From NCBI GenBank assembly GCA_017936845.1, contig JAGBES010000023.1:26720-90719 (forward strand): a stretch of DNA of 64,000 nucleotides. The letters are read 5' to 3'. This document shows, one piece after another, positions 2,965 to 61,372 of this stretch (the first letter of the stretch is position 1; every line of letters starts with the position of its first letter). This DNA comes from Bacilli bacterium (GTDB lineage Bacteria; Bacillota_I; Bacilli_A; RF39; UBA660). The notes under the pieces are model-generated. The model was not told the origin of the DNA. It saw only the letters and a program-made list of their open reading frames with translations, and made no database searches. The position numbers and the translations under genes were made by a program.

Positions 2965-4226
2965 TTGCGTTTTCCCCTTCCTCTAGTATAATTACGAGTT
3001 ACAAGTTCACTTTCAAGTTGTTTATATACTTCTAAAGCTACTCCAACAACGATTAATAAACTTGTTCCTCCAATACTTACACTTGAAGGTAATTTTGAAA
3101 ATACACTAAACAATACAGGTATAGCTGCAACTATAGAAAGTGCGACTGCCCCAATTGCTGTAATGCGTTTTAAAATTGTTTTTATATATTTTGTTGTTTC
3201 TTCTCCAGGTCTTACTCCAGGAATAAAACCTCCGTTTTGTCCTAAATTTTCTGATAATTCATCTGGTTTAATTTGTAAAAATGTATAAAAATAAGCAAAT
3301 ACAAATATACATACAATATAAATTACAAATCCTGTTGGTGTTGTCATTGTTAACCATTTATTAACAAAAGTTGTAACTGCTGTCTTTTTAGCGACAGCTG
3401 CAACTATTCCAGGTAATGTAAGTATTATTGAAGCAAATATTACTGGCATTACTCCAGCTGAATTTAATTTAAATGGAATATAACTTGTTTGTTTTCCATA
3501 TATACTTGTTGTTTTATTAGCATATTGAATTGGAATTCTACGTTCTGCTGTCTCAATAAATACTACACCAAGTAAAATAGCTACATATAAAATTACAAAA
3601 CCTACAAATTTAAGTATACCAAGCCATCCACCATCTGGTACAAATGAATTATATGTTACATAAAACATATTAGGTAGTGTAGCAATTATACCCGCCATTA
3701 TTATCATTGAAACACCATTACCAATACCTTTTTCAGTAATTCTATCACCTATCCATAATAGTAATGATGTACCTGCTGTTAAAATAAGTGCAAATGTTAA
3801 GTAATCTAATGGACTACCATTATTTACAAATGCGAATGAAAATACATAACCTTGTATAAATGCTAATACTATTCCCATGTATCTTGTTATTTTATTTAAT
3901 TTATTTCTACCTGTTTGTCCTTGTTTTCCAAGTTCTGAGAAATAAGGGATTATATCCATTTGTAATAATTGCATTACAATTGAAGCATTAATATATGGAA
4001 TAACACCTAGAGCAAATATTGAAAATTGTTCTAATGCTCCTCCTCCCATAGCATTAATTAATTCAAAAAATCCTAAACTTGTATCCCCTAAACTATCTCT
4101 ATTAATTCCTGGAACAATTATTGATGTCCCTAACTTAAATACAAATAACATAAGAAATGTAAAATATATTCTTTTTCTTAAATCTTTATTTTGAGGTTTA
4201 AATAATTGCTTTATTTTTTTAAACAA
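2961..4226 (-). CDS. secY: preprotein translocase subunit SecY
   Basis: A 421-aa polytopic membrane protein with SecY motifs, placed between rplO and adk. Confidence 0.95.
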   Translation of the reverse strand: MFKKIKQLFKPQNKDLRKRIYFTFLMLFVFKLGTSIIVPGINRDSLGDTSLGFFELINAMGGGALEQFSIFALGVIPYINASIVMQLLQMDIIPYFSELGKQGQTGRNKLNKITRYMGIVLAFIQGYVFSFAFVNNGSPLDYLTFALILTAGTSLLLWIGDRITEKGIGNGVSMIIMAGIIATLPNMFYVTYNSFVPDGGWLGILKFVGFVILYVAILLGVVFIETAERRIPIQYANKTTSIYGKQTSYIPFKLNSAGVMPVIFASIILTLPGIVAAVAKKTAVTTFVNKWLTMTTPTGFVIYIVCIFVFAYFYTFLQIKPDELSENLGQNGGFIPGVRPGEETTKYIKTILKRITAIGAVALSIVAAIPVLFSVFSKLPSSVSIGGTSLLIVVGVALEVYKQLESELVTRNYTRGRGKRK

Positions 4227-4670
4227 TTAGATCACCTCTACTTTTCCACCTAATTTTTCTATCTCTTGACGAGCTTTTTCTGAAAATTTATGTGCTTTAA
4301 CTACTAATTTCTTTTCTAAAGTTCCATATCCTAAAACTTTTACTCCATCTAATTGATTTTTTAGTAATCCCATTTCTTTTAATAATTCTGGAGTAATAAC
4401 TGAATCATTCTCAAATCTATTTAAATCACTTAAATTAATTACAGCATATTCTGTTTTAAATCTAGCATTTGTAAATCCTCTTTTTGGTAATCTTCTATAT
4501 AAAGGTAATTGTCCACCTTCAAATCCTGGTTTATGACTATAACCGCTTCTTGATTTTTGTCCGTTTTCACCACGACCAGAAGTTTTTCCAAGTCCACTAC
4601 CAGGTCCACGACCTACTCTTTTACGAGTTTTAGTTGCTCCAAAATTTGGAGATATTGTATGTAGCTTCAT
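4227..4670 (-). CDS. rplO: 50S ribosomal protein L15
   Basis: 147 aa, glycine-rich and basic like L15, in the conserved position. Confidence 0.93.
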
Positions 4671-5209
4671 TATATAATTTCCTCTACTTTCTTACCTCTT
4701 AAAGCTGCAATTTCTTCAGCTGTTTTTTGTGATTTTAATGCTTCTAATGTAGCATATGCCATATTAATTTTAGTGTTTGATCCTAGTGATTTTGATAATA
4801 TATCTTTTACACCAGCAAGTTCAAGTACTGCACGAACTGGTCCACCAGCTTTAACTCCTGTACCTGGACAAGCAGGTTTAAGCATTACTCTACTAGCGCC
4901 TCTTACACCAATTGCTTCATGTGGGATTGTTCTATCTTCAATTAAAGAAATTGTAGTTACATTTTTAGTTGCTGCTCCAACAGCTTTTTTTATTGCATCT
5001 GGTACTTCATTTGCTTTTCCAGTACCTAAACCAACTTTACCTTTTCTATCTCCTACAACTACTGTAGCTGAGAAACGAAAATGACGACCACCTTTTGTTA
5101 CTTTAGTAACACGTCCAATATTAATTACTTCTTCTTCATATAATTTTTGTTGTTTTTCTCTTGGTTGTTTGTTTCTTTTTTGGCGTGGTTCTCTTTTATT
5201 TTCTTCCAT
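4670..5209 (-). CDS. rpsE: 30S ribosomal protein S5
   Basis: The S5 dsRBD and C-terminal domain ([13 protein letters not shown]...). No rpmD (L30) gene lies between rpsE and rplO. Confidence 0.95.
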
Positions 5210-5223
5210 TGGTTACCCTCCTT

Positions 5224-5586
5224 TTAGAATTTTAATCCATTTGAACGTGCAGCATCAGCTAATGCTTTTACACGACCATGATATAGGTATCCACCTCTAT
5301 CAAATACTACTTCTGTTATTTTAGCATCTTTTGCTCTTTTAGCTAAAAGTTCTCCAACTTTAGTAGCTGCTTCTACGTTTCCACCATTTTGTAGTTTTAA
5401 TTCTTTATCTATAGAAGAAGCACTAATTAATGTAGTTCCTTTTTCATCATCTATTATTTGAGCAAAAATATTGCCATTTGATCTAAATACATTAAGTCTT
5501 GGAACACTTGAAGTACCAGAAATTTTATTTCTAACACGAGCGTGTCTTGACTTACGAACATCATTACGAGCTACTTTTTTTATCAT
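5224..5586 (-). CDS. rplR: 50S ribosomal protein L18
   Basis: 120 aa with an L18 profile, in the conserved position. Confidence 0.93.
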
Positions 5587-13085: not shown

Positions 13086-13218
13086 ATTGTATCCTCCCTT
13101 CGCCTATATCTTGTATAGACTAGCTCCGTGTAAAAACCCGATATTCTTAAATTAAATCTTTACAACTTAACCTGGTGTATCGGCAACCTCACACATCATC
13201 GCTTGTCACACATTCAAA

Positions 13219-19318: not shown

Positions 19319-20197
19319 CTACTCCTTAATGTTTAATACTTCTAGTATTCTATTTAAATCTGCTATATTAGTAAAAGATATTTCTACTTTATTTTCTTTT
19401 ACTACTACTCTTGTATCTAATTTATCTCTTAATATTTCTTCTACATATTTAAATTCATTGTTTTTTTCTTTTCTTATAGTTGGCTTTTTCTTTTTTTCTT
19501 CACTGCTAACTCTTTCAATATCTCGAACTGTTAAATCTTCATTTACTATTTTATTAGCAAGTTCTAGTATTTTATCATTATCTTCAAGTTTGCTAAGCAT
19601 TCTAGCATGGCCCATAGTTAAATTACCTTGGATAACCATTTTTTGAACTTCTTTTGGTAATCTAAGTAAACCTAAAATATTAGTGATATGACTTCTACTT
19701 TTCCCTACTTTTTTTGATAATTCATCTTGTGTTAAATTTAATTTTTCTATCATTGATTTATAAGCAATTGCTTCCTCTATTACATTTAAATTTTCTCTTT
19801 GTAAATTTTCTAGAAGTGCAATTTCCATCATTTGTGTATCACTAAATTCTCTTATAATAGCAGGTATCTTATTTAAACCAGCTAATTTAGAAGCCCTTAC
19901 TCTTCTTTCGCCTGCTATTATTTCATATCCTTTTATACTCTTCTTTACAATTATTGGTTGAAAGACTCCATGTTCTTTTATTGATTCTGATAATTCTTTT
20001 AATGCTTCATCATCAAATATTTTTCTTGGTTGATATGGATTTGGTCTTAGTTCATCTAAATTTATCTCTATTATTTCTTCATTTGTTGATTCTTCATATA
20101 TTGTTCTTTCCATTTGATCTAAGTCTAGATTTTCACCATTAAATAGTTGTTCTAATCCTCTACCTAGTGCCCTTTTTTTATTCTCCATTTCTATCAA
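19319..20197 (-). CDS. parB: chromosome partitioning protein ParB (Spo0J)
   Basis: ParB box GERRVRAS, an HTH, and a start that overlaps the parA 3' end. Confidence 0.92.
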   Translation of the reverse strand: MIEMENKKRALGRGLEQLFNGENLDLDQMERTIYEESTNEEIIEINLDELRPNPYQPRKIFDDEALKELSESIKEHGVFQPIIVKKSIKGYEIIAGERRVRASKLAGLNKIPAIIREFSDTQMMEIALLENLQRENLNVIEEAIAYKSMIEKLNLTQDELSKKVGKSRSHITNILGLLRLPKEVQKMVIQGNLTMGHARMLSKLEDNDKILELANKIVNEDLTVRDIERVSSEEKKKKPTIRKEKNNEFKYVEEILRDKLDTRVVVKENKVEISFTNIADLNRILEVLNIKE

Positions 20198-31653: not shown

Positions 31654-31860
31654 TCCTCCAAAAAAAAATTACTCCCAACTAAGGGCGTAATTACGCGATA
31701 CCACCTTATTCATAACCAAAATAGTTATCTCAAACATTTAACGCATGTATACGTCTTAATTTACATATCAATTAAGCAGTTTAGGAACCATTCGAAATAT
31801 AATTAGAATATCTAGCTCTCACCTTACCTAGACTCTCTTTAAAACAATTATATTTTTCTT
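31654..31860 (-). promoter_or_regulatory. structured 5' leader with a T-box-like motif, a terminator-like hairpin and a U9 tract upstream of dut-metG (candidate T-box riboswitch)
   Basis: The minus-strand RNA contains AAUAAGGUGGUAUCGCG (T-box consensus AAUUAGGGUGGNACCGCG, with a UGGU bulge that could pair with the tRNA NCCA end). This is followed by the GCGUAAUUACGC and CCCUUAGUUGGG hairpins and UUUUUUUUU, then the RBS GGAGGAG. Upstream lies an AGAGAG...GGUGAGAGCUAG stem-I-like region. Confidence 0.4.
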
Positions 31861-31902
31861 TCCATCAAAACCTTTATTTTCGTTATTATATCATAGTTTA
31901 TT

Positions 31903-37562: not shown

Positions 37563-38405
37563 TTAATCACCTCTATGATAAATATTATAAATTTCACTTT
37601 TTACAATATTTCTTTCTTTAGCTACTTTCTTTATTGCTTCTTTTGAATCATATCCTTCTTTAATATATAAATTAACGTGTTCTATAATTGTCAAATTTTC
37701 GTAAGTATTAGTATCTGTATTACCTTCTACTATTAAAACTATTTCTCCTTTTACTTCATCAAGTTCTTTTATTACTTCTTCTATAGTACCTCTATATACT
37801 TCTTCAAATTTTTTTGATATTTCCCGGGAAATACTTATTTGTCTATTTCCCAACACTTCTTTTATATCATTTAAAGTTTTTATAATGCGATGTGGTGCTT
37901 CATAAAAAATCAAAGTTGTTTTTAAATTTTTTATTTCTTCTAGTTCTTTTTTCCTTTTTGAATCTTTACTATTTAAAAAGCCAAAGAAAGTAAATGGACT
38001 AGGATTTATACCTGATACTGTTAAAGCAGGAATAAGAGCAGTTGGACCTGGTAATGATACAACGTTAAAATCATTTTTTATTGCAATTTTAACTAATTCA
38101 TATCCTGGATCACTTATTACTGGTGTTCCCCTATCTGTTACTACTCCAACATTATATCCTTGATTTAAATAATCTAATAATATATTTTCATTTTTTGTTT
38201 CATTATAATTATGACTAGAAATTAACTTTTTATTGATATTTAAATAATTTAATAATTGTCTTGTAACTCTTGTATCTTCTGAAAATATAACTTCTACTTC
38301 TTTTAACACATTTATTGCACGTAATGTTATATCTTCCATATTTCCAATTGGAGTTGGTATCAAATATAATATAGGCTTTTTATTTATATAACTTTTTTGT
38401 GACAT
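37563..38405 (-). CDS. rsmI: 16S rRNA (cytidine1402-2'-O)-methyltransferase
   Basis: TP-methylase fold (LYLIPTPIGN...). 280 aa; a yabC/yraL homolog. Confidence 0.88.
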   Translation of the reverse strand: MSQKSYINKKPILYLIPTPIGNMEDITLRAINVLKEVEVIFSEDTRVTRQLLNYLNINKKLISSHNYNETKNENILLDYLNQGYNVGVVTDRGTPVISDPGYELVKIAIKNDFNVVSLPGPTALIPALTVSGINPSPFTFFGFLNSKDSKRKKELEEIKNLKTTLIFYEAPHRIIKTLNDIKEVLGNRQISISREISKKFEEVYRGTIEEVIKELDEVKGEIVLIVEGNTDTNTYENLTIIEHVNLYIKEGYDSKEAIKKVAKERNIVKSEIYNIYHRGD

Positions 38406-41964: not shown

Positions 41965-43590
41965 CTAATCATATTGTAATATATCACTAAATTCATTTTC
42001 TAAATTATTATCAAGTGATAACATATTTTCTATATTTGGTTCTTCTATATATTCATATACTTTCTTTTTATTATTAAATTCATCTTTTATTATATTCCAA
42101 TTATTTATATCAGTTGATATTAATTTATACGGTTCATTAAATACCTCTTTAAATAATTGATCTATCTCAATTATCTTTGAATTAAATATATTTGACAATC
42201 TAGAATCATCATATATAATTATTACATTATTATTTCCAACTGCTTTTATCGTTCCCTCTAGTATAAGAGAAGTTATCTCACTATATTTTGGTTCCATTAG
42301 CATTATTCTAATTTCATCTATTTTATTTTTAAATTCTATTAATTGTTTTTTGTTAAAATTACACAAAGTATTATTTATTCTTATATTTTCTATATTTTTA
42401 ATTATTTCTGGATTAATATTTTCTACTTTTATGTTATTAAATTTTTCTTTTTTTTGTTCTACTTGTTTTTGTTTATTTGTTGATTTTTGTTCTATTTTTT
42501 CGTCATTATTATTTTTTTCTTTATTTAAAATTTTTATTATAATTATTTCAAATATCAATTTTGGATTATTTGATTTTTTCATTTCTAAGATTCCATTATT
42601 AAAATATTCTATATTTTTTATTATTTCTTCTTCGGTTATTTGTTTTGATATTTCCTCATAAATTTCATATGATGATATGTTTTGTCTTAAATATTCTTTA
42701 GCATTAAGTGCTAATAAAATATTTCTATAGAAATTAATTATTTCTTCTGATAATTTTACAAAATTTTTACCATTATCATCATATTTATCTATAATTGAAA
42801 AAATTTGATTATACTCTTTATTTTTTATTTGTTCTATTAATTCTTTTAATTCATATTGTGGAATTGTTCCGTTTATTTCATGAACAGAATTTATTGTTAT
42901 TATATTATCTTCATATGCTATTACTTGATCTAAAATACTCAAAGCATCTCTCATACCACCATCTGCTAATCTTGAAATTTCCGTAATTGCTTCTTCTTCT
43001 ATATTAATTTTTTCTTTTTCTACTATATATTTTATTCTTTCTTTTATTTTTGAAACTGATATTTTTTTAAAATCAAATTTTTGACATCTAGACAATATTG
43101 TATTTGGAATTTTATATATTTCAGTTGTTGCTAATATAAATATAACATGTGCTGGTGGTTCTTCTAAAGTTTTTAATAATGCATTAAATGCTCCTATAGT
43201 AAGCATATGTACTTCATCTATTATATATATTTTATATTTTCCAGTTGCTGGTACTAAATTAACATTGTTTCTTAATTCTCTTATTTCATCTACTCCATTA
43301 TTTGATGCAGCATCTATTTCTATTATATCAATAGATTGTTTATTATTTATTTGTGTACAATTAACACAATCATTACAAGGTATCATATTTTTTAAATTTA
43401 AACAATTAATGGTCTTTGCTATTATTTTTGCAGTACTTGTTTTTCCTGTTCCTCTTGGACCACTAAATATATATGCATGGTTTATTTTATTATTTTTTAT
43501 TGCATTTTTTATTGTTTTAATTATTATATCTTGACCTACTACTTCATCAAAAGTTTTAGGTCTATATTTTCTATATAAAGTTTGATACAT
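41965..43590 (-). CDS. dnaX: DNA polymerase III subunit tau/gamma
   Basis: AAA+ motif GPRGTGKTS and a zinc module. An RBS GAGGTGA precedes the ATG at 43590 (MYQTLYRKYRP); the ORF track GTG start at 43605 is probably too long. Confidence 0.93.
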   Translation of the reverse strand: MYQTLYRKYRPKTFDEVVGQDIIIKTIKNAIKNNKINHAYIFSGPRGTGKTSTAKIIAKTINCLNLKNMIPCNDCVNCTQINNKQSIDIIEIDAASNNGVDEIRELRNNVNLVPATGKYKIYIIDEVHMLTIGAFNALLKTLEEPPAHVIFILATTEIYKIPNTILSRCQKFDFKKISVSKIKERIKYIVEKEKINIEEEAITEISRLADGGMRDALSILDQVIAYEDNIITINSVHEINGTIPQYELKELIEQIKNKEYNQIFSIIDKYDDNGKNFVKLSEEIINFYRNILLALNAKEYLRQNISSYEIYEEISKQITEEEIIKNIEYFNNGILEMKKSNNPKLIFEIIIIKILNKEKNNNDEKIEQKSTNKQKQVEQKKEKFNNIKVENINPEIIKNIENIRINNTLCNFNKKQLIEFKNKIDEIRIMLMEPKYSEITSLILEGTIKAVGNNNVIIIYDDSRLSNIFNSKIIEIDQLFKEVFNEPYKLISTDINNWNIIKDEFNNKKKVYEYIEEPNIENMLSLDNNLENEFSDILQYD

Positions 43591-43660
43591 TTCATCACCT
43601 CGCACTATTCAATTATATCATTTTTTATTTATTTTAAAAAGATTTTAATTTATATTTTAT

Positions 43661-43679
43661 ATGTTTCACGTGGAACATT
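43661..43679. repeat. palindromic element copy 1 (ATGTTTCACGTGGAACATT, GG variant)
   Basis: A near-perfect 19-bp palindrome centred on CACGTG, lying between dnaX and tadA. Confidence 0.9.
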
Positions 43680-43704
43680 AAATATTATATTTTTAATAAA
43701 AAAC

Positions 43705-43724
43705 AATGTTTCACGTGAAACATT
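43705..43724. repeat. palindromic element copy 2 (AATGTTTCACGTGAAACATT, a perfect 20-bp palindrome), which also forms the tadA terminator hairpin
   Basis: A perfect palindrome that overlaps the tadA stop. On the minus-strand RNA it is followed by GUUUUUUAUU. Confidence 0.9.
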
Positions 43725-44151
43725 ATCTTATATTTTGAAAAAATTTTTGAATTAAATAAAATATTTGTTTATTTTCTATTTTTTTTATTTCATATTTATT
43801 ATTTTTAAAAATTTTATTATTTTCTATATTTCCAAAATTTTTATTTGAAACAGAATAATATATTTTTTTTATTCTTGACTGAATTATTGCTCCTGAACAC
43901 ATTATACATGGCTCCATTGTTGAATATAATATACAATCATCTAAATGCCACGTTTTTAATTTTTTACAAGCTTTATTGATTGCTAATATTTCAGCATGAT
44001 AAGTAGCTATTTTATTTTTTTCTTTTTTATTATATGCTTTAGCAATTACTTTATCATTTTTTACAATAACACATCCTACAGGAATATCTCCTTTTTTATA
44101 TGCTTTTAATGCTTCTTTATATGCAATTTTAATATATTTTTTATTTTCCAA
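43723..44151 (-). CDS. tadA: tRNA-specific adenosine deaminase
   Basis: CDA zinc motifs HAE...PCIMC. An RBS AGGTGA precedes the TTG at 44151; the ORF track starts at the GTG at 44160. Confidence 0.85.
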   Translation of the reverse strand: MENKKYIKIAYKEALKAYKKGDIPVGCVIVKNDKVIAKAYNKKEKNKIATYHAEILAINKACKKLKTWHLDDCILYSTMEPCIMCSGAIIQSRIKKIYYSVSNKNFGNIENNKIFKNNKYEIKKIENKQIFYLIQKFFQNIR

Positions 44152-44162
44152 TATTATCACCT

Positions 44163-44246
44163 ACAAAAAAAAGCACACACATTTAGAGGCTATTAAGGCT
44201 GCTATCTTCCGATTCTGACCTAGTTCAAACATAAATGTTGTGCCTC
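44163..44246 (-). ncRNA. ffs: small (4.5S-type) signal recognition particle RNA
   Basis: The minus-strand RNA 5'-UUAGAGGCACAACAUUUAUGUUUGAACUAGGUCAGAAUCGGAAGAUAGCAGCCUUAAUAGCCUCUAA...U8 matches the SRP domain IV consensus (E. coli AGGUCAGGUCCGGAAGGAAGCAGCC), with compensatory changes AUC/GAU flanking the GGAA tetraloop. A terminal helix UUAGAGGC/GCCUCUAA closes it. Confidence 0.75.
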
Positions 44247-44250
44247 TAAT

Positions 44251-44279
44251 AATATACATTATTATTATTAATTTTGCAA
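44251..44279 (-). promoter_or_regulatory. SRP RNA promoter (TTGCAA-17-TATATT)
   Basis: Hexamers on the minus strand with a 17-nt spacing; the predicted TSS falls at the 5' end of the UUAGAGGC helix. Confidence 0.5.
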
Positions 44280-44316
44280 TAATTAATATTAATTATATTA
44301 TAAAATATTTATTAAT

Positions 44317-44334
44317 ATGTTTCACGTGAAACAT
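44317..44334. repeat. palindromic element copy 3 (ATGTTTCACGTGAAACAT, a perfect 18-bp palindrome)
   Basis: Lies between gyrA and the SRP RNA promoter. Confidence 0.9.
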
Positions 44335-44355
44335 TATAATTTTTTATTTATATGT

Positions 44356-44374
44356 ATGTTTCACGTGGAACATT
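44356..44374. repeat. palindromic element copy 4 (ATGTTTCACGTGGAACATT, identical to copy 1)
   Basis: A direct repeat of copy 1, 695 bp away. Confidence 0.9.
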
Positions 44375-44419
44375 CTTTATTTTAATATAATTAATAAAAA
44401 AAGTAGTATTTTATTAACA

Positions 44420-46879
44420 CTACTTTTCACTATTTTTTTCTAATTCTGACTCTTCTTCTTTATCATCTTCTTGATGTTCTATAATTGCTACATTACTTAC
44501 TAATTGATTTTCTTTTAAATTAATTAATCTAACTCCTTGAGCAACTCTTCCTGTTGTAGAAATTTGTGATATAGGTAATCTAATAATAATACCATTATTT
44601 GTTATAATCATTAAATCTTCATCACCATTTATTATTTTAAATGATACTATATTACCATTTTTTTCAGTAACATTTAGTGCTTTAACACCTTTACTTCCTC
44701 TATGAGTTTGACGATATTCTTCTACACTGGTTTGTTTTCCATAACCTTTTTCAGTTACTACTAATACATTTTGATTTTGCTCTGCTATTTCACAACCAAC
44801 ACAAATACCAGAACCTATACTTATTCCTCTAACTCCTGATGCAGATCTACCCATAATTCTTATTTCAGATTCTTCAAATCTAATCATTCTTCCATTAGAT
44901 GCACCTATAATAATATTTTTATTTCCATCTGTTTTTTTAACAGAAATTAGTTTATCATCATCTTTTAAAGTTATAGATATTTTTCCATTTTTTCTTACAC
45001 TATCAAATTCTGATATGTTAGTTCTTTTAATTAATCCTTTTTGTGTACAAAATACAATAAATTGATTTTTATCTTCTTTTTCAATAGAAAGCATAGCTGT
45101 TACATTTTCATCTTTTTCAATTGGAAGTAAATTAATTATTGGTAAACCTTTTGATTGTCTACTAAATTCAGGAACTTCATAACCTTTAATTTTATATACT
45201 TTTCCTCTATCGGTAAAGAATAATATATAATCATGAGTTGTCATTGATATTAAATTTTTAACAAAATCTTCTTCATTTGTTGTCATTCCTTTAATACCTA
45301 CTCCACCTCTATTTTGAGTTTTATATGTTTCATTATTAACTCTTTTTATATAACCTTTTTCAGTTAGTGTAATAATTACATTTTCTATTGGAATTAAAGA
45401 TTCATCTTCTATATAATCGATTGAAGTCATATCTATATTTGTTTTTCTTTCATTTGCATATTTTTCTTTTATTTCTATTAATTCTTCTTTTATTACATTT
45501 AAAATCTTTTCATCACTTGATAATATATCTTTTAAATAATCTATCAATTTATTTAATTCTTCTATTTCATTTAATATTTTACTTTTTTCTAATCCCGTTA
45601 ATCTTCTTAATTTCATTTCAAGTATAGCTTCAGATTGAATTTCATCTAAATTAAATCTATTCATTAATTGTTCTTTAGCTATTTCATCACTTTTTGATTC
45701 CTTTAGAATTTTAACAACTTCATCTATATTATCAAGAGCAATTTTTAATCCATTTAATATATGTACACGATCTTCTGCTTTTTTTAAATCATATTTTGTT
45801 CTTCTTATAATTACTTCTTTTTGAAAATCAATATAATTTGAAATAATTGCTTTTAAGCCTAAAATTTGTGGTGTACCTTGATTTAACATTAACATGTTAA
45901 TTCCATATGTTGTTTGTAATTGCGTATGTTTATATAAATTATTAAGTACAACATTTGGATTTGCATCTCTTTTAAGTTCAATAACTATTTTTAATCCATC
46001 ACTAAAAGATGTTTCTTCTCTTAAATCTGAAATACCATCAATTGCTTTATCTCTTACAAGTTCTGCAATTCTCGTAATTAAAGATGAAGTATTTACTTGA
46101 TATGGAACTTCTGTAATTATTAATTCTGATCTATCTTTTTTATCTACTATATCAACTTTTCCACGTAAAGTAATAGTTCCTTTACCTGTTTCATAAGCTT
46201 TTTTTATTCCACTATTTCCTAAAATAAATCCTCCTGTTGGAAAATCTGGTCCTTTAATATAATTCATTAAACCTAAAGTATCTATTTCAGGATTTTCTAT
46301 ATAAGCTACACATCCATCTATTACTTCTCCTAAATTATGTGGAGGAATATTTGTAGCCATACCTACAGCAATTCCCATAGTACCATTTACTAATATATTA
46401 GGAAATCTACTTGGTAAAACAACAGGTTCTTCACGAGTAGCATCAAAGTTTGGTGTAAAATCTACTGTGTTTTTCTTAATATCTCTTACCATTTCCATAG
46501 CAATTTTAGAAATTCTTGATTCAGTATAACGATAAGCTGCTGCTTGACTTCCATCAATTGCTCCAAAGTTACCATGTCCATCTATTAATGGATGACGATA
46601 ACTAAAATCTTGAGCCATTCTAACCATAGCATCATATACTGCTGTATCACCATGTGGATGATAATTACCTATAACAGCTCCAACTGTTTTAGCACATTTT
46701 ACATATCCTTTATCTGGAGTAAATCCAGATTCTAACATTGTATGTAAAATTCTTCTATGAACTGGTTTTAATCCATCTCTCAAATCAGGTAAAGCACGAG
46801 CTATTATAACACTCATTGAATATTCAATAAATGAATCTTTCATTTCTTTTACTATATTATTTGATTCTAATTTATCCAT
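44420..46879 (-). CDS. gyrA: DNA gyrase subunit A
   Basis: 819 aa, with the active-site region AAMRYTE and an acidic C-terminal tail. Confidence 0.96.
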
Positions 46880-50041: not shown

Positions 50042-50491
50042 TTATAAATTCTTTCTTTTTCTAAGTACTGATTCCAACATTGTTGCTCTTAAAATTTGAT
50101 TTTGTAATGATTCATAAGAAATATTAACTATTATTTCTTCATTATTATTAAATATAATTTTAGAAGAACCATTAAATTTTTTGTAACTATTTATATTATT
50201 AAGTGATATCCAAAAACAATCTGAAAATCTTGGTGAACTAGTTGGAAAAAAAATAATTTCTCTTGTTTCTTCTACGACAATTGGACATTTATAATTTATT
50301 CCTATTAAATTTTTAGTACCCTCTTGTCTACCTATATATGAACTTCCAAAATACTTACAACTATAATCTACTATTTCAGTTGTTTTTCTTTTAACTATAA
50401 AATTATTATCAATTTCAATAACTTTCGAAATTTTTGAATCAATTGGTATAATAGCTAAAGTATTTATATTTATTTCATAATTTTCTAACAT
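50042..50491 (-). CDS. comK: competence transcription factor ComK homolog
   Basis: 149 aa. SCKYFGSSYIGRQEGT, PIVVEETREIIFFPTSSPRFSDCFWIS and ISYESLQNQILRATML match the conserved ComK blocks SCRFFGSSYAGRKAGT, PPIMVDPSNQIFLFPTLS...CGWIS and ISYNSFENQVYRTAWL. A strong RBS AAAGGGGGAGGTG is present. Confidence 0.75.
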   Translation of the reverse strand: MLENYEININTLAIIPIDSKISKVIEIDNNFIVKRKTTEIVDYSCKYFGSSYIGRQEGTKNLIGINYKCPIVVEETREIIFFPTSSPRFSDCFWISLNNINSYKKFNGSSKIIFNNNEEIIVNISYESLQNQILRATMLESVLRKRKNL

Positions 50492-51866: not shown

Positions 51867-53213
51867 TTATTTTATTTGATTAATTAGTTTATTAATTTCA
51901 AATTCAAAATTTTGATCTTTTTTTATTTGTTTTTTAATTTTATCGACAGAGTGCATAACAGTTGTATGATCTTTCCCACCAAATTCAATTCCTATTTTAG
52001 TCAGAGGTTCTTCTAAAATAATTCTACAAATATACATTGCAATTTGTCTTGGAAATGCAATTGTACTTACTCTTTTTTTACTTTTTAAGTCTTCAACTTT
52101 TATATTATAATGATTAGCAACTATTTGTTGTACTTGATCTATTTTATTTTTAGAAATAATTGTTTTTGAAAAATAATCTTGTAAAGCTTCAATAGCAAGT
52201 GATAATGTAATATCACTACCATTCATCATTGTTGCATAAGCAACTACTCTAGTGATAGCTCCTTCAAGTTTTCTAATATCTCCAGTACAATTACTAGCAA
52301 TATATTCTTTAACATCTTTAGGAAAACTACTATTTAACATATTAGATTCAATTTTGTTATCAATAATATGCATTCTAAGATCAAAATCAGGTGGAAAAAT
52401 ATTAATTGTTAATCCCCAATTAAATCTTGTTAATAATCTTTCTTCTAATAGTTTTAAATCCTCTGGAGATCTATCAGAAGAAATAATTATTTGTTTATTA
52501 TTTCCGTAAAGATCATTAAAAGTATTAAAAAATTCTTGTTGTGTTTGATTTGCATTTCCTAAATATTGAATATCATCAATTATTAAAACATCAATATCAC
52601 GATATTTCTTTTTAAATATTTCTACATTATCAAAATTATTTTTATTTTTCTTCCTTGTAATTCCAATAAAGTCTTCAACAAATCTTTCACAAGTAACATA
52701 TAAAACTCTCTTATTTTTATTTTGTACAATATAATTTCCAATAGCATGCATTAAATGTGTTTTACCAAGTCCACTTTTTCCATATATAAATAAAGGATTA
52801 TACATTTGTCCAGGATTTTCAGCAACTGCAAGTGCAGTTGCATGAGCAAATTTATTACTTTCACCTACTACAAAATTATCAAAATTATATTTAGATATAA
52901 GATTTGTTTCGAAATTATTATTAGGTACCCCTATTTCATCAGTATTTATTTCTATATTATTTTCTATTTCCTCTTCTAATAAATAATCAAATTTAAAATT
53001 AGAACCAGATATTTCAGTAAATACTTCTTCAATTAAATCATTATAATTTTCTTTTAAATTCTTTTTTTGAATATGCATTGATACAACTACAATAGCTTTA
53101 TTATCAACAATTTTATAAAGTTTTGAATCAGCAAACCAAGTATCATAAGAAATTTTAGAAATTTTAGTTTTTATTTTTTCTAAAAAAATATTCCAAAGCT
53201 TATCAATATCCAT
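51867..53213 (-). CDS. dnaA: chromosomal replication initiator DnaA
   Basis: AAA+ motif GKSGLGKTHL and a C-terminal DNA-binding domain. 448 aa. Confidence 0.96.
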   Translation of the reverse strand: MDIDKLWNIFLEKIKTKISKISYDTWFADSKLYKIVDNKAIVVVSMHIQKKNLKENYNDLIEEVFTEISGSNFKFDYLLEEEIENNIEINTDEIGVPNNNFETNLISKYNFDNFVVGESNKFAHATALAVAENPGQMYNPLFIYGKSGLGKTHLMHAIGNYIVQNKNKRVLYVTCERFVEDFIGITRKKNKNNFDNVEIFKKKYRDIDVLIIDDIQYLGNANQTQQEFFNTFNDLYGNNKQIIISSDRSPEDLKLLEERLLTRFNWGLTINIFPPDFDLRMHIIDNKIESNMLNSSFPKDVKEYIASNCTGDIRKLEGAITRVVAYATMMNGSDITLSLAIEALQDYFSKTIISKNKIDQVQQIVANHYNIKVEDLKSKKRVSTIAFPRQIAMYICRIILEEPLTKIGIEFGGKDHTTVMHSVDKIKKQIKKDQNFEFEINKLINQIK

Positions 53214-59755: not shown

Positions 59756-59851
59756 TTTTTCTTTTTTTATTGAAATTATTTCCCGGAAAATATTGAAAAT
59801 TAAAAAAAAATATAGTATTATTATATGGAATAGGAAAAGGGGAAGATAAAA

Positions 59852-61372
59852 ATGAGAATGAGGAAGGAAGTTTTTATTCTTAGCATTGATGATATTTTAC
59901 CAAATAGATTTCAACCAAGAATAAAATTTGACGAAAAAGCAATTTTAGAATTAGCAGAATCAATAAAAAAACATGGTGTAATACAACCAATTATTGTTAG
60001 AAAAATATCGGATAAATATGAAATAATTGCGGGAGAAAGAAGATATAAAGCAAGTGTTATTGCAGGAAGAAAAACAATACCAGCTATAATAACAGATGTA
60101 GATGATAAAGAGAGTGCTGAAATAGCTTTAATAGAAAATGTTCAAAGACAAGACATGACACCTATAGAAGAAGCAATATCTTATAAAAAAATATTAGATA
60201 TGGGTTATTTAAATCAATCAGAATTAGCTTTAAAATTAGGAAAAACTCAATCAACAATTGCTAATAAATTAAGACTTTTAAATTTATCGGATGAAGTACA
60301 AGAAGCATTATTAGATGAAAAAATATCTGAACGTCATGCAAGATCTTTATTAAGATTACAACAAAAAGATCAAAAAGATGTATTAAATAAGATAATAACA
60401 GAAAGATTAACAGTTAGAAAAACTGATCAATTAATAAATCAAATTTTATCAAATGATAATGATTCAAAAAATAATCAAAATAGTGAAAAAATAATTACAA
60501 AAAATAATCAAATAATAGAAGAAAAAGGTGATAATATGAATAATGAGAATAATAATATAAATAATAGTTTTAATATACCAACAAATCCAATAATAGAAAA
60601 TGAATCAAATTCAAATCCAGGATTTATGAATATATCAGATATAGAAAATAATGCGCAAGATATAAATAATAATCCACAACCTCAAAATAATCCATTTAAT
60701 CCTTTTGGAAACTCACAACCATTTAATCCATTTATGCAACCAACAGAACAACCAATTCAACAAATGGAACAACAAGTTGAACCACAACAATTTAATGAAC
60801 CAATAGCACAAGAAAATAATCAAATGGAACAACCATTTAATCCATTTATGCAACCATTAGAACAACCAACTCAACAAATGGAACAATCAGTAGAACCACA
60901 ACAATTTAATGAACCAATAGCACAAGAAAATAATCAAATGGAGCAACCATTTAATCCATTTATGCAACCAGTAGAACAACCAATTCAACAAATGGAACAA
61001 TCAGCAGAACCACAACAATTTAATGAACCAATAGCACAAGAAAATAATCAAATGGAACAACCATTTAATCCATTTATGCAACCAACAGAACAACCAACTC
61101 AACAAATGGAACAACCATTTAATTCATTTGTTCAATCAACGCCAATTTATGATCAATCTTACTCAGATTATCCATTACCAGAAGATAAAGAATTAACTCC
61201 ATTAATGCCAAATATGCAACAAGAACCAGAAAGAAGAGCTGACTTGAGAACTGTTATTAATATTATAAGAGATTGTACTAATTCAATAGAAGCAATGGGA
61301 TATAAAATAGATGTTGATGAATTAGATTTTGAAAATACATATGAATTTTCAATAAAAATTGAAAAAGAATAA
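59852..61372 (+). CDS. ParB/Noc-family protein (N-terminal ParB domain plus HTH) with a long Q/P/N-rich tandem-repeat linker and a short C-terminal domain
   Basis: The N-terminal 190 aa carry ParB motifs (IIAGERRYKAS, an HTH). Residues ~290-420 consist of three and a half copies of a 38-aa unit (PFNPFMQPxEQPxQQMEQxxEPQQFNEPIAQENNQMEQ). The gene sits in the noc position after rsmG, but without a parA partner. Confidence 0.85.
   Translation: MRMRKEVFILSIDDILPNRFQPRIKFDEKAILELAESIKKHGVIQPIIVRKISDKYEIIAGERRYKASVIAGRKTIPAIITDVDDKESAEIALIENVQRQDMTPIEEAISYKKILDMGYLNQSELALKLGKTQSTIANKLRLLNLSDEVQEALLDEKISERHARSLLRLQQKDQKDVLNKIITERLTVRKTDQLINQILSNDNDSKNNQNSEKIITKNNQIIEEKGDNMNNENNNINNSFNIPTNPIIENESNSNPGFMNISDIENNAQDINNNPQPQNNPFNPFGNSQPFNPFMQPTEQPIQQMEQQVEPQQFNEPIAQENNQMEQPFNPFMQPLEQPTQQMEQSVEPQQFNEPIAQENNQMEQPFNPFMQPVEQPIQQMEQSAEPQQFNEPIAQENNQMEQPFNPFMQPTEQPTQQMEQPFNSFVQSTPIYDQSYSDYPLPEDKELTPLMPNMQQEPERRADLRTVINIIRDCTNSIEAMGYKIDVDELDFENTYEFSIKIEKE
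60719..61114 (+). repeat. 114-bp in-frame tandem repeat, about 3.5 copies at more than 95% identity, inside the ParB/Noc-like gene
   Basis: Units begin at 60719, 60833, 60947 and 61061 (partial), and differ by only a few substitutions. Confidence 0.9.

Follow-up and report, generated by a model that had tools for sequence, protein, structure and literature searches.

Four predicted parS sites flanking ffs and tadA in the oriC region of an uncultured Bacilli bacterium

The stretch of DNA analysed here (64 kb, called the window throughout) belongs to an uncultured low-GC gut Bacilli lineage. Along the minus strand the locus reads gyrA, palindrome copies 4 and 3, ffs, tadA, palindrome copies 2 and 1, and dnaX, which agrees with the first-pass annotation in that the palindromes flank tadA and the SRP RNA gene. 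The features are, by coordinate:

41965-43605, minus strand: dnaX
43662-43677: core of copy 1, putative parS; TGTTTCACGTGGAACA on the plus strand, equal to TGTTCCACGTGAAACA on the minus strand; in the tadA-dnaX spacer; exact match to TGTTNCACGTGAAACA; conserved in the same-species contigs L001-L005
43707-43722: core of copy 2, putative parS; TGTTTCACGTGAAACA, a perfect palindrome; directly after the tadA stop codon; exact match to the consensus
43723-44160, minus strand: tadA (tRNA adenosine deaminase); NF008113, 97 bits, under the curated cut-off of 150
44156-44254, minus strand: ffs (small SRP RNA); Rfam RF00169, 58.7 bits
44318-44333: core of copy 3, putative parS; a perfect palindrome; in the gyrA-ffs spacer, as part of a 39-bp tandem unit
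44357-44372: core of copy 4, putative parS; the C/G variant found in copy 1; in the gyrA-ffs spacer
44394-44428, minus strand: gyrA terminator, a hairpin (-12.0 kcal/mol, z = -3.7) followed by UUUUUUU; separate from the parS copies
44420-46879, minus strand: gyrA

For the orthologues of tadA, cytidine/deoxycytidylate deaminase Pfam families were recorded.

The motif ATGTTTCACGTG(G/A)AACAT was found four times when the whole window was scanned, always within positions 43661-44374. Its 18-mer ATGTTTCACGTGRAACAT starts at 43661, 43706, 44317 and 44356 and has no further copy in the 64 kb; eight strand-matches were counted against 0.08 expected, a number reached in none of 100 dinucleotide shuffles. 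Three of these starts are those first reported, while that of copy 2, given earlier as 43705, is correct for the 20-bp palindrome AATGTTTCACGTGAAACATT only. The description of the copies themselves stands: the inner ones (2 and 3) are palindromic without a mismatch, over 20 bp and 18 bp, and the outer ones (1 and 4) share both a single-base G-variant and their orientation and lie at a distance of 695 bp. The four sites span 712 bp, in intergenic DNA, and are arranged as two tandem pairs, which tandem-unit scoring resolved into units of 39 bp and 45 bp.

The 16-bp cores of the palindromes are TGTTTCACGTGAAACA and TGTTCCACGTGAAACA, the second on the minus strand, and all four fit the chromosomal parS consensus TGTTNCACGTGAAACA on one strand with no mismatch. 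The variant TGTTCCACGTGAAACA, which is the original B. subtilis parS site, fits TGTTNCACGTGAAACA too. This consensus has been listed for B. subtilis, Corynebacterium, Burkholderia chromosome I and Hyphomonas, among others (PMC7022226). Allowing up to two mismatches to the 16-bp core, no additional site was identified in the window, and at three mismatches six scattered hits were added. Nine other CACGTG hexamers are present in the window, in unrelated sequence contexts and nearly all overlapping long ORFs. The four sites do not match the 14-bp core of the Noc-binding site (NBS), ATTTCCCGGGAAAT, as they carry CACGTG where it has CCCGGG.

The window is the oriC region of the chromosome, and the sites are thus origin-proximal. 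The origin is marked by

51867-53213, minus strand: dnaA; TIGR00362 DnaA, 494 bits

and the start codon of this gene is 8.8-9.6 kb away from the parS cluster. A sign change of the GC skew falls in the interval 52-56 kb (at about 53 kb), and near 53.2-53.8 kb coding passes from one strand to the other, with dnaA, dnaN, recF, gyrB and gyrA on the minus strand to one side of the origin and rnpA, yidC, jag, mnmE, mnmG and rsmG on the plus strand to the other.

Three genes for partition-type proteins were identified in the same window, 23 kb separating the parAB pair from the palindromes:

19319-20197, minus strand: Spo0J-type ParB, the predicted parS-binding CTP clamp; 292 aa; TIGR00180 parB_part, 215 bits
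20178-20963, minus strand: ParA/Soj partition ATPase; directly upstream of parB and overlapping it; ParA-family NCBIfam hits
59852-61372: Noc-like ParB-family protein; 506 aa; adjoins rsmG; best solved relatives Noc 7NFU and 7NG0

The Spo0J-type ParB was detected by a phmmer scan over all six-frame ORFs, and the view that the Noc-like gene at 59852 was the only ParB-family gene of the window was rejected on this account. Among solved structures its best match is B. subtilis Spo0J (6SDK, 229 bits, versus 163 bits for Noc); those of its partner are ParA 8RAY (261 bits) and Soj 6IUB (224 bits). A ParA/Soj ATPase, which most but not all such systems have, is present beside the ParB. In the work of Jalal et al. 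(2020, PMC7383237) the specificity residues were R173/T179/A184/G201 in ParB and Q/K/K/R in Noc, and R173 was invariant in the parS-specific variants. The Spo0J-type protein has R173, I179, R184 and G201 at these positions, in 'GKSRSHITNILGLLRL...TMGHAR'; two of them, R173 and the small residue G201, are of the parS type. The Noc-like protein has Q173/K179/N184/R201, which predict specificity for NBS and not for parS; given the invariance of R173, it is not expected to be a reader of parS. In a 93%-identical contig, no soj or spo0J was found in the 10 kb downstream of the noc-like gene.

The locus was then compared with that of other strains and species. Same-species contigs, recovered via an exact RecR look-up, contain four to five parS copies in the same two spacers. 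Upstream of ffs some strains have two units and others three units of 39 to 40 bp, and strain L004 has a perfect palindrome at copy 1 where the window has the G variant. Across species, a DnaX-anchored scan with one genome per GTDB species gave 64 loci, the closest of which come from MAGs labelled uncultured Bacilli, Lactobacillales, Erysipelotrichaceae, Mollicutes or Tenericutes, with DnaX identities of 40-83%. The ffs/tadA-dnaX arrangement was present in 54 of the 64, and in 48 gyrB-gyrA also fell within the fetched DNA. Counting parS at one mismatch or less, sites (1-11) were identified between gyrA and dnaX in 52 of these 54 syntenic genomes, and upstream of ffs in 51, with copy numbers from 0 to 11 over the whole set. 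Outside the gyrA-dnaX interval there were none in the 618,779 bp of flanking DNA from the 54 related genomes. The sequence of the site is conserved to the base between genomes whose DnaX proteins are only about 41% identical.

Strict tandem repeats make up the arrays of the closest relatives: L009 has 11 units of 37 bp, L010 has four of 37 bp, and the units of L021 are 53 bp long, so that upstream units measure 37-53 bp. The gyrA-ffs spacer of the relatives is 0.1-1.9 kb long, and its length follows the number of parS copies (Spearman rho 0.72, p = 6e-9); long spacers (1.1-1.9 kb) have 18-19% GC and no open frame of more than 65 codons. Apart from the window species, only L008, L009 and L014 have copies between tadA and dnaX; in these three, parS stands directly after tadA in the position of copy 2. 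As the downstream copies are restricted to these closest relatives, the symmetric bracket around ffs and tadA, which the first-pass annotation had described, is not conserved: the conserved feature is the parS array in the gyrA-ffs spacer, and the bracket is a species-level accident.

Based on the exact match to the consensus, the position near the origin, the partition genes in the same window and the parS sites found between gyrA and dnaX throughout the lineage, the four palindromes are with little doubt predicted to be chromosomal parS, the cis-acting centromere-like loading sites of a ParABS system. The first-pass annotation had not recognised them as such. As textbook parS, they are not a new regulatory or mobile element. 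Going by reviews of ParABS (PMC7333895, PMC7022226), ParB dimers would nucleate on each 16-bp palindrome and bind CTP. The CTP-bound ParB would then close into clamps and slide onto the flanking DNA, giving a partition complex which would stimulate ParA and load SMC condensin at the origin, with the outcome that newly replicated sister origins would be individualised and segregated. CTP-dependent clamp formation is documented for the ParB family (PMC7053999, PMC8429893). Both pairs of sites go back to local tandem duplications, the duplicated units being 39 to 45 bp long, and the copy number drifts, with two or three upstream copies among strains and 0-11 among species.

Because every parS is palindromic, and because copy 2 comes after a stop codon and has a U-tract next to it, this copy might serve as a terminator for tadA. 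Copy 2 abuts or overlaps the TAA stop of tadA (43723-43725), and in the transcript GUUUUUUAUU comes next. Its RNA forms a 13-bp hairpin (43695-43734, minus strand) and then the U-tract, with a folding energy of -13.9 kcal/mol and z = -5.3; one of 200 shuffled sequences folded as stably. A scan for consensus terminators between 43400 and 44600 called none, copy 2 included. Copy 2 escaped it because the scan needs at least three G-C pairs, which is too strict for a genome of 25% GC, and folding was used in its place. The U-tract after the tadA-proximal copy is present in L008 and absent from L009. The statement made earlier that copy 2 acts as an intrinsic terminator therefore holds for the stop overlap, the hairpin and the U-tract, while termination itself is only plausible; parS copy 2 plausibly doubles as the intrinsic terminator of tadA, a role of secondary importance. 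Copies 1 and 4 fold no better than shuffled sequence (z = -0.67 and +0.17), the hairpin of copy 3 is weak (-7 kcal/mol), and, as had been noted, a U-tract is missing after copies 1, 3 and 4.

Three rival explanations were weighed. According to the first the palindromes are the operators of some other dimeric factor (Rex/CRP/cre-like, PadR-like with ATGT-N-ACAT, or an E-box-type CACGTG binder) which regulates or insulates ffs-tadA. Palindromic, intergenic sites on both sides of a transcription unit would suit such a factor, and copy 3 overlaps a weak -35-like hexamer in a promoter-like match upstream of ffs. Promoter-like matches, however, are at background level in this AT-rich DNA (19 versus 12.5 +/- 3.8 expected), so no conclusion was drawn on an overlap between parS and an ffs promoter. 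The site is not known to match the consensus sequences of Rex, CRP or cre. The 16-mer is an exact ParB site, and both a parS-type ParB and a ParA are encoded in the window. In relatives, spacers of 1-1.9 kb hold as many as 11 copies, variable in number and spacing, which does not suit an operator, and the bracket is not kept. The operator explanation is thus very improbable; what survives of the proposed dimeric regulator is that these are predicted sites of a dimeric helix-turn-helix DNA-binding protein, and the insulating operator set does not.

According to the second they belong to a REP-like palindromic element, or to a generic family of terminator hairpins, dispersed in the genome. It is true that the sites are palindromic, intergenic and in tandem units, and that copy 2 folds well and has a U-tract next to it, but the other three copies do not share these folding properties: 1 and 4 do no better than shuffled sequence and 3 is weak and without a U-tract. 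No more copies occur in the 64-kb window, nor in the 619 kb that flank the orthologous intervals of the 54 genomes. This bears out the observation that the four copies are specific to the locus, and it speaks against dispersal. Conservation to the base at about 41% DnaX identity is, moreover, unlike that of REP families, and this explanation has hardly any likelihood left. The third, that they are recombination scars or att-like repeats delimiting a mobile ffs-tadA cassette, can practically be dismissed: the outer copies are indeed identical direct repeats 695 bp apart around two genes, but the order gyrA-ffs-tadA-dnaX is kept in 48 species-level genomes with or without downstream copies, no recombinase gene was found near the locus, copy 1 switches between the G variant and the perfect one in strain L004 without rearrangement, and what 54 genomes conserve is the array upstream of ffs, the pairs being tandem duplications.

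The predicted parS sites resemble those of the B. subtilis parS/Spo0J-Soj system in their identical 16-bp sequence (TGTTNCACGTGAAACA), in their proximity to the origin, and in the Spo0J-like ParB with a Soj-like ParA adjacent to it. The B. subtilis sites are scattered across a large ori domain and often lie inside genes; here, in contrast, two tandem pairs in intergenic DNA place all four sites within 712 bp, and parAB is found 23 kb from them and not beside noc and rsmG. Ten parS sites are known in B. subtilis, eight of them in the ori domain (PMC7022226). Dense parS near oriC, with 10-23 copies, has been described for Streptomyces coelicolor, Listeria innocua, Myxococcus xanthus and Corynebacterium glutamicum (PMC7022226, PMC7333895). 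Relatives of the window organism similarly reach 10-11 near-identical copies. Unlike those dense clusters, the arrays here are confined to a single non-coding spacer, that between gyrA and ffs, and form strict 37-53-bp tandem repeats in the closest relatives. The sopC centromere of plasmid F consists of 12 tandem 43-bp repeats, and the ParB homologue SopB binds to a 16-bp inverted repeat in each of them. The array of L009 is similar to it, with 11 tandem 37-bp units containing one 16-bp ParB-type palindrome each, and the 39- and 45-bp pairs of the window are a short version of the same arrangement. The sites in the window differ from sopC in being chromosomal, in having the universal parS sequence and in their far lower number.

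The value of the finding is one of annotation: the sites, which mark the centromere of the chromosome in an uncultured, low-GC lineage of gut Bacilli, should be labelled parS. That the array keeps its position (gyrA-ffs) across dozens of species is of modest interest for chromosome segregation. The expansion and contraction of the tandem repeats, even between strains, bears on why the number and clustering of parS sites vary, a question raised in PMC7333895.

The NBS (TATTTCCCGGGAAATA) is a related 16-bp palindrome which is bound by a ParB paralogue, and the window contains an exact NBS as well as a Noc-like gene, although the four sites described above are parS. NBS and parS differ at two positions per half-site, NBS being read by Q173/R201 and parS by R173/G201 (PMC7383237). 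The exact 16-bp NBS is at 37819, inside an rsmI-like gene, in a position conserved in at least ten relatives, and a one-mismatch NBS was located at 59778, a short way upstream of the noc-like gene. Of the 120 homologues closest to the Noc-like protein, 115 have QKNR at the specificity positions and three have QKKR. The paralogue of this lineage carries a long Q/N/P-rich insert. Nucleoid occlusion by Noc needs an N-terminal amphipathic helix that targets the membrane (PMC8429893). Where the conserved PN..QPR motif could be located in a homologue, no more than 14-17 residues precede it, and these proteins therefore lack the membrane-targeting helix; the alignment with the solved structure of Geobacillus Noc sets in at about residue 24 of the latter.

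In more distant relatives exact NBS were found interleaved with parS in the gyrA-ffs spacer. A literature search returned only papers on engineering and specificity, and no natural co-array of parS and NBS was described in them. It is possible, though only tentatively proposed, that the gyrA-ffs spacer is a fast-evolving composite tandem-repeat centromere on which two ParB-family CTP clamps load side by side, 'Noc' having been repurposed as a second organiser of the origin region, and that the window species represents the parS-only form. The interleaving of NBS, paired with a Noc paralogue without membrane anchor, is of modest interest; it concerns the relatives rather than the window, and is more interesting than the parS finding itself. 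In numbers, 51 NBS were counted in 63 kb of gyrA-dnaX intervals and 16 in 619 kb outside them, and the sites (N, NBS; P, parS) of L039 alternate strictly, as N-P-N-P-N-P-N-P, while L031 has seven NBS and two parS.

A second protein of the ParB family, a Noc-like paralogue, is encoded in the window together with two candidate copies of the Noc-binding site (NBS), a 16-bp palindrome related to parS.
37819-37832: exact NBS core, ATTTCCCGGGAAAT, within an rsmI-like methyltransferase gene (37563-38405)
59778-59791: NBS copy with one mismatch, ATTTCCCGGAAAAT, some 60 bp 5' of the noc-like gene
59852-61372, plus strand: 506-aa Noc-like paralogue of ParB; its specificity residues, Q/K/N/R, are of the NBS type

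The residues QKNR or QKKR were found in 118 of the 120 closest homologues of the Noc-like protein. Its N-terminus is too short for the membrane-targeting amphipathic helix of Noc, since the stop-to-stop frame begins at 59834, and a short N-terminus is common to those of the 120 homologues with a recognisable PN..QPR motif. The protein has a short C-terminal domain and an insert of about 230 aa; this insert is rich in Q, N and P and includes several tandemly repeated units, each about 44 aa long. No soj or spo0J gene was found 3' of the noc-like gene. The one-mismatch NBS upstream of this gene may be a sign of autoregulation or of a loading site. The position of the NBS within the rsmI-like gene is also kept in the relatives' loci L008, L009, L014, L019, L020, L022, L023, L025 and L029.

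In relatives, the same non-coding gyrA-ffs spacer holds parS interleaved with exact NBS (TATTTCCCGGGAAATA), at approximately positions 4200-5500 of the locus. Such interleaving was observed in loci L026, L028, L030-L036, L038-L046, L048-L050, L053-L056, L063 and L069 of the DnaX-anchored scan. Across the relatives' loci, 51 NBS lie in 63 kb of gyrA-dnaX intervals, as against 16 in the 619 kb outside them. The spacer of L039 reads N-P-N-P-N-P-N-P (N, NBS; P, parS), while that of L031 contains seven NBS and two parS. A literature search found no description of natural parS/NBS composite arrays.

The parS sites differ among strains of one species, as was seen when the same-species contigs L001-L005 were compared with the window (44317-44374 and 43661-43678). 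Two or three tandem units of 39 to 40 bp each are present upstream of ffs, and single parS copies swap among TGTTTCACGTGAAACA, TGTTCCACGTGAAACA and TGTTCCACGTGGAACA. Within genomes, parS variants are homogenised in L054 (4998-5381), L056 (5054-5385), L034-L041 and L069. Almost all parS copies of L054 and L056 have the non-palindromic centre TGTTTCACATGAAACA, and TGTTCCACGTGGAACA is the near-exclusive form in the L034-L041 group. This homogenisation per genome points either to concerted evolution of the array or to parS and ParB having co-evolved. In the fetched gyrA-dnaX intervals, L025 and L051, both syntenic, had no parS at up to one mismatch and L017 had a single site with one mismatch; the centromere of these relatives may be elsewhere or may have diverged.

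Three other features were identified in the window.
50042-50491, minus strand: ComK-family gene (PF06338, 152 bits), between dnaN and recF
31678-31877, minus strand: T-box leader (Rfam, 93 bits, exactly the gathering score)
13100-13207, minus strand: S10-Clostridia ribosomal-protein leader (Rfam, 37.3 bits)

The dnaN-recF position in Bacilli is usually occupied by a small S4-like gene; the ComK-family gene is also kept in the same-species contigs. The two leaders are ordinary features. Locus L018 (CAZKKR010000001.1) shows gyrA-parS-ffs-tadA-dnaX synteny of the Bacilli type with a GC content of 28%, but the MAG to which the contig is assigned has the title "uncultured Muribaculaceae bacterium"; this probably reflects a mistake in binning or labelling.
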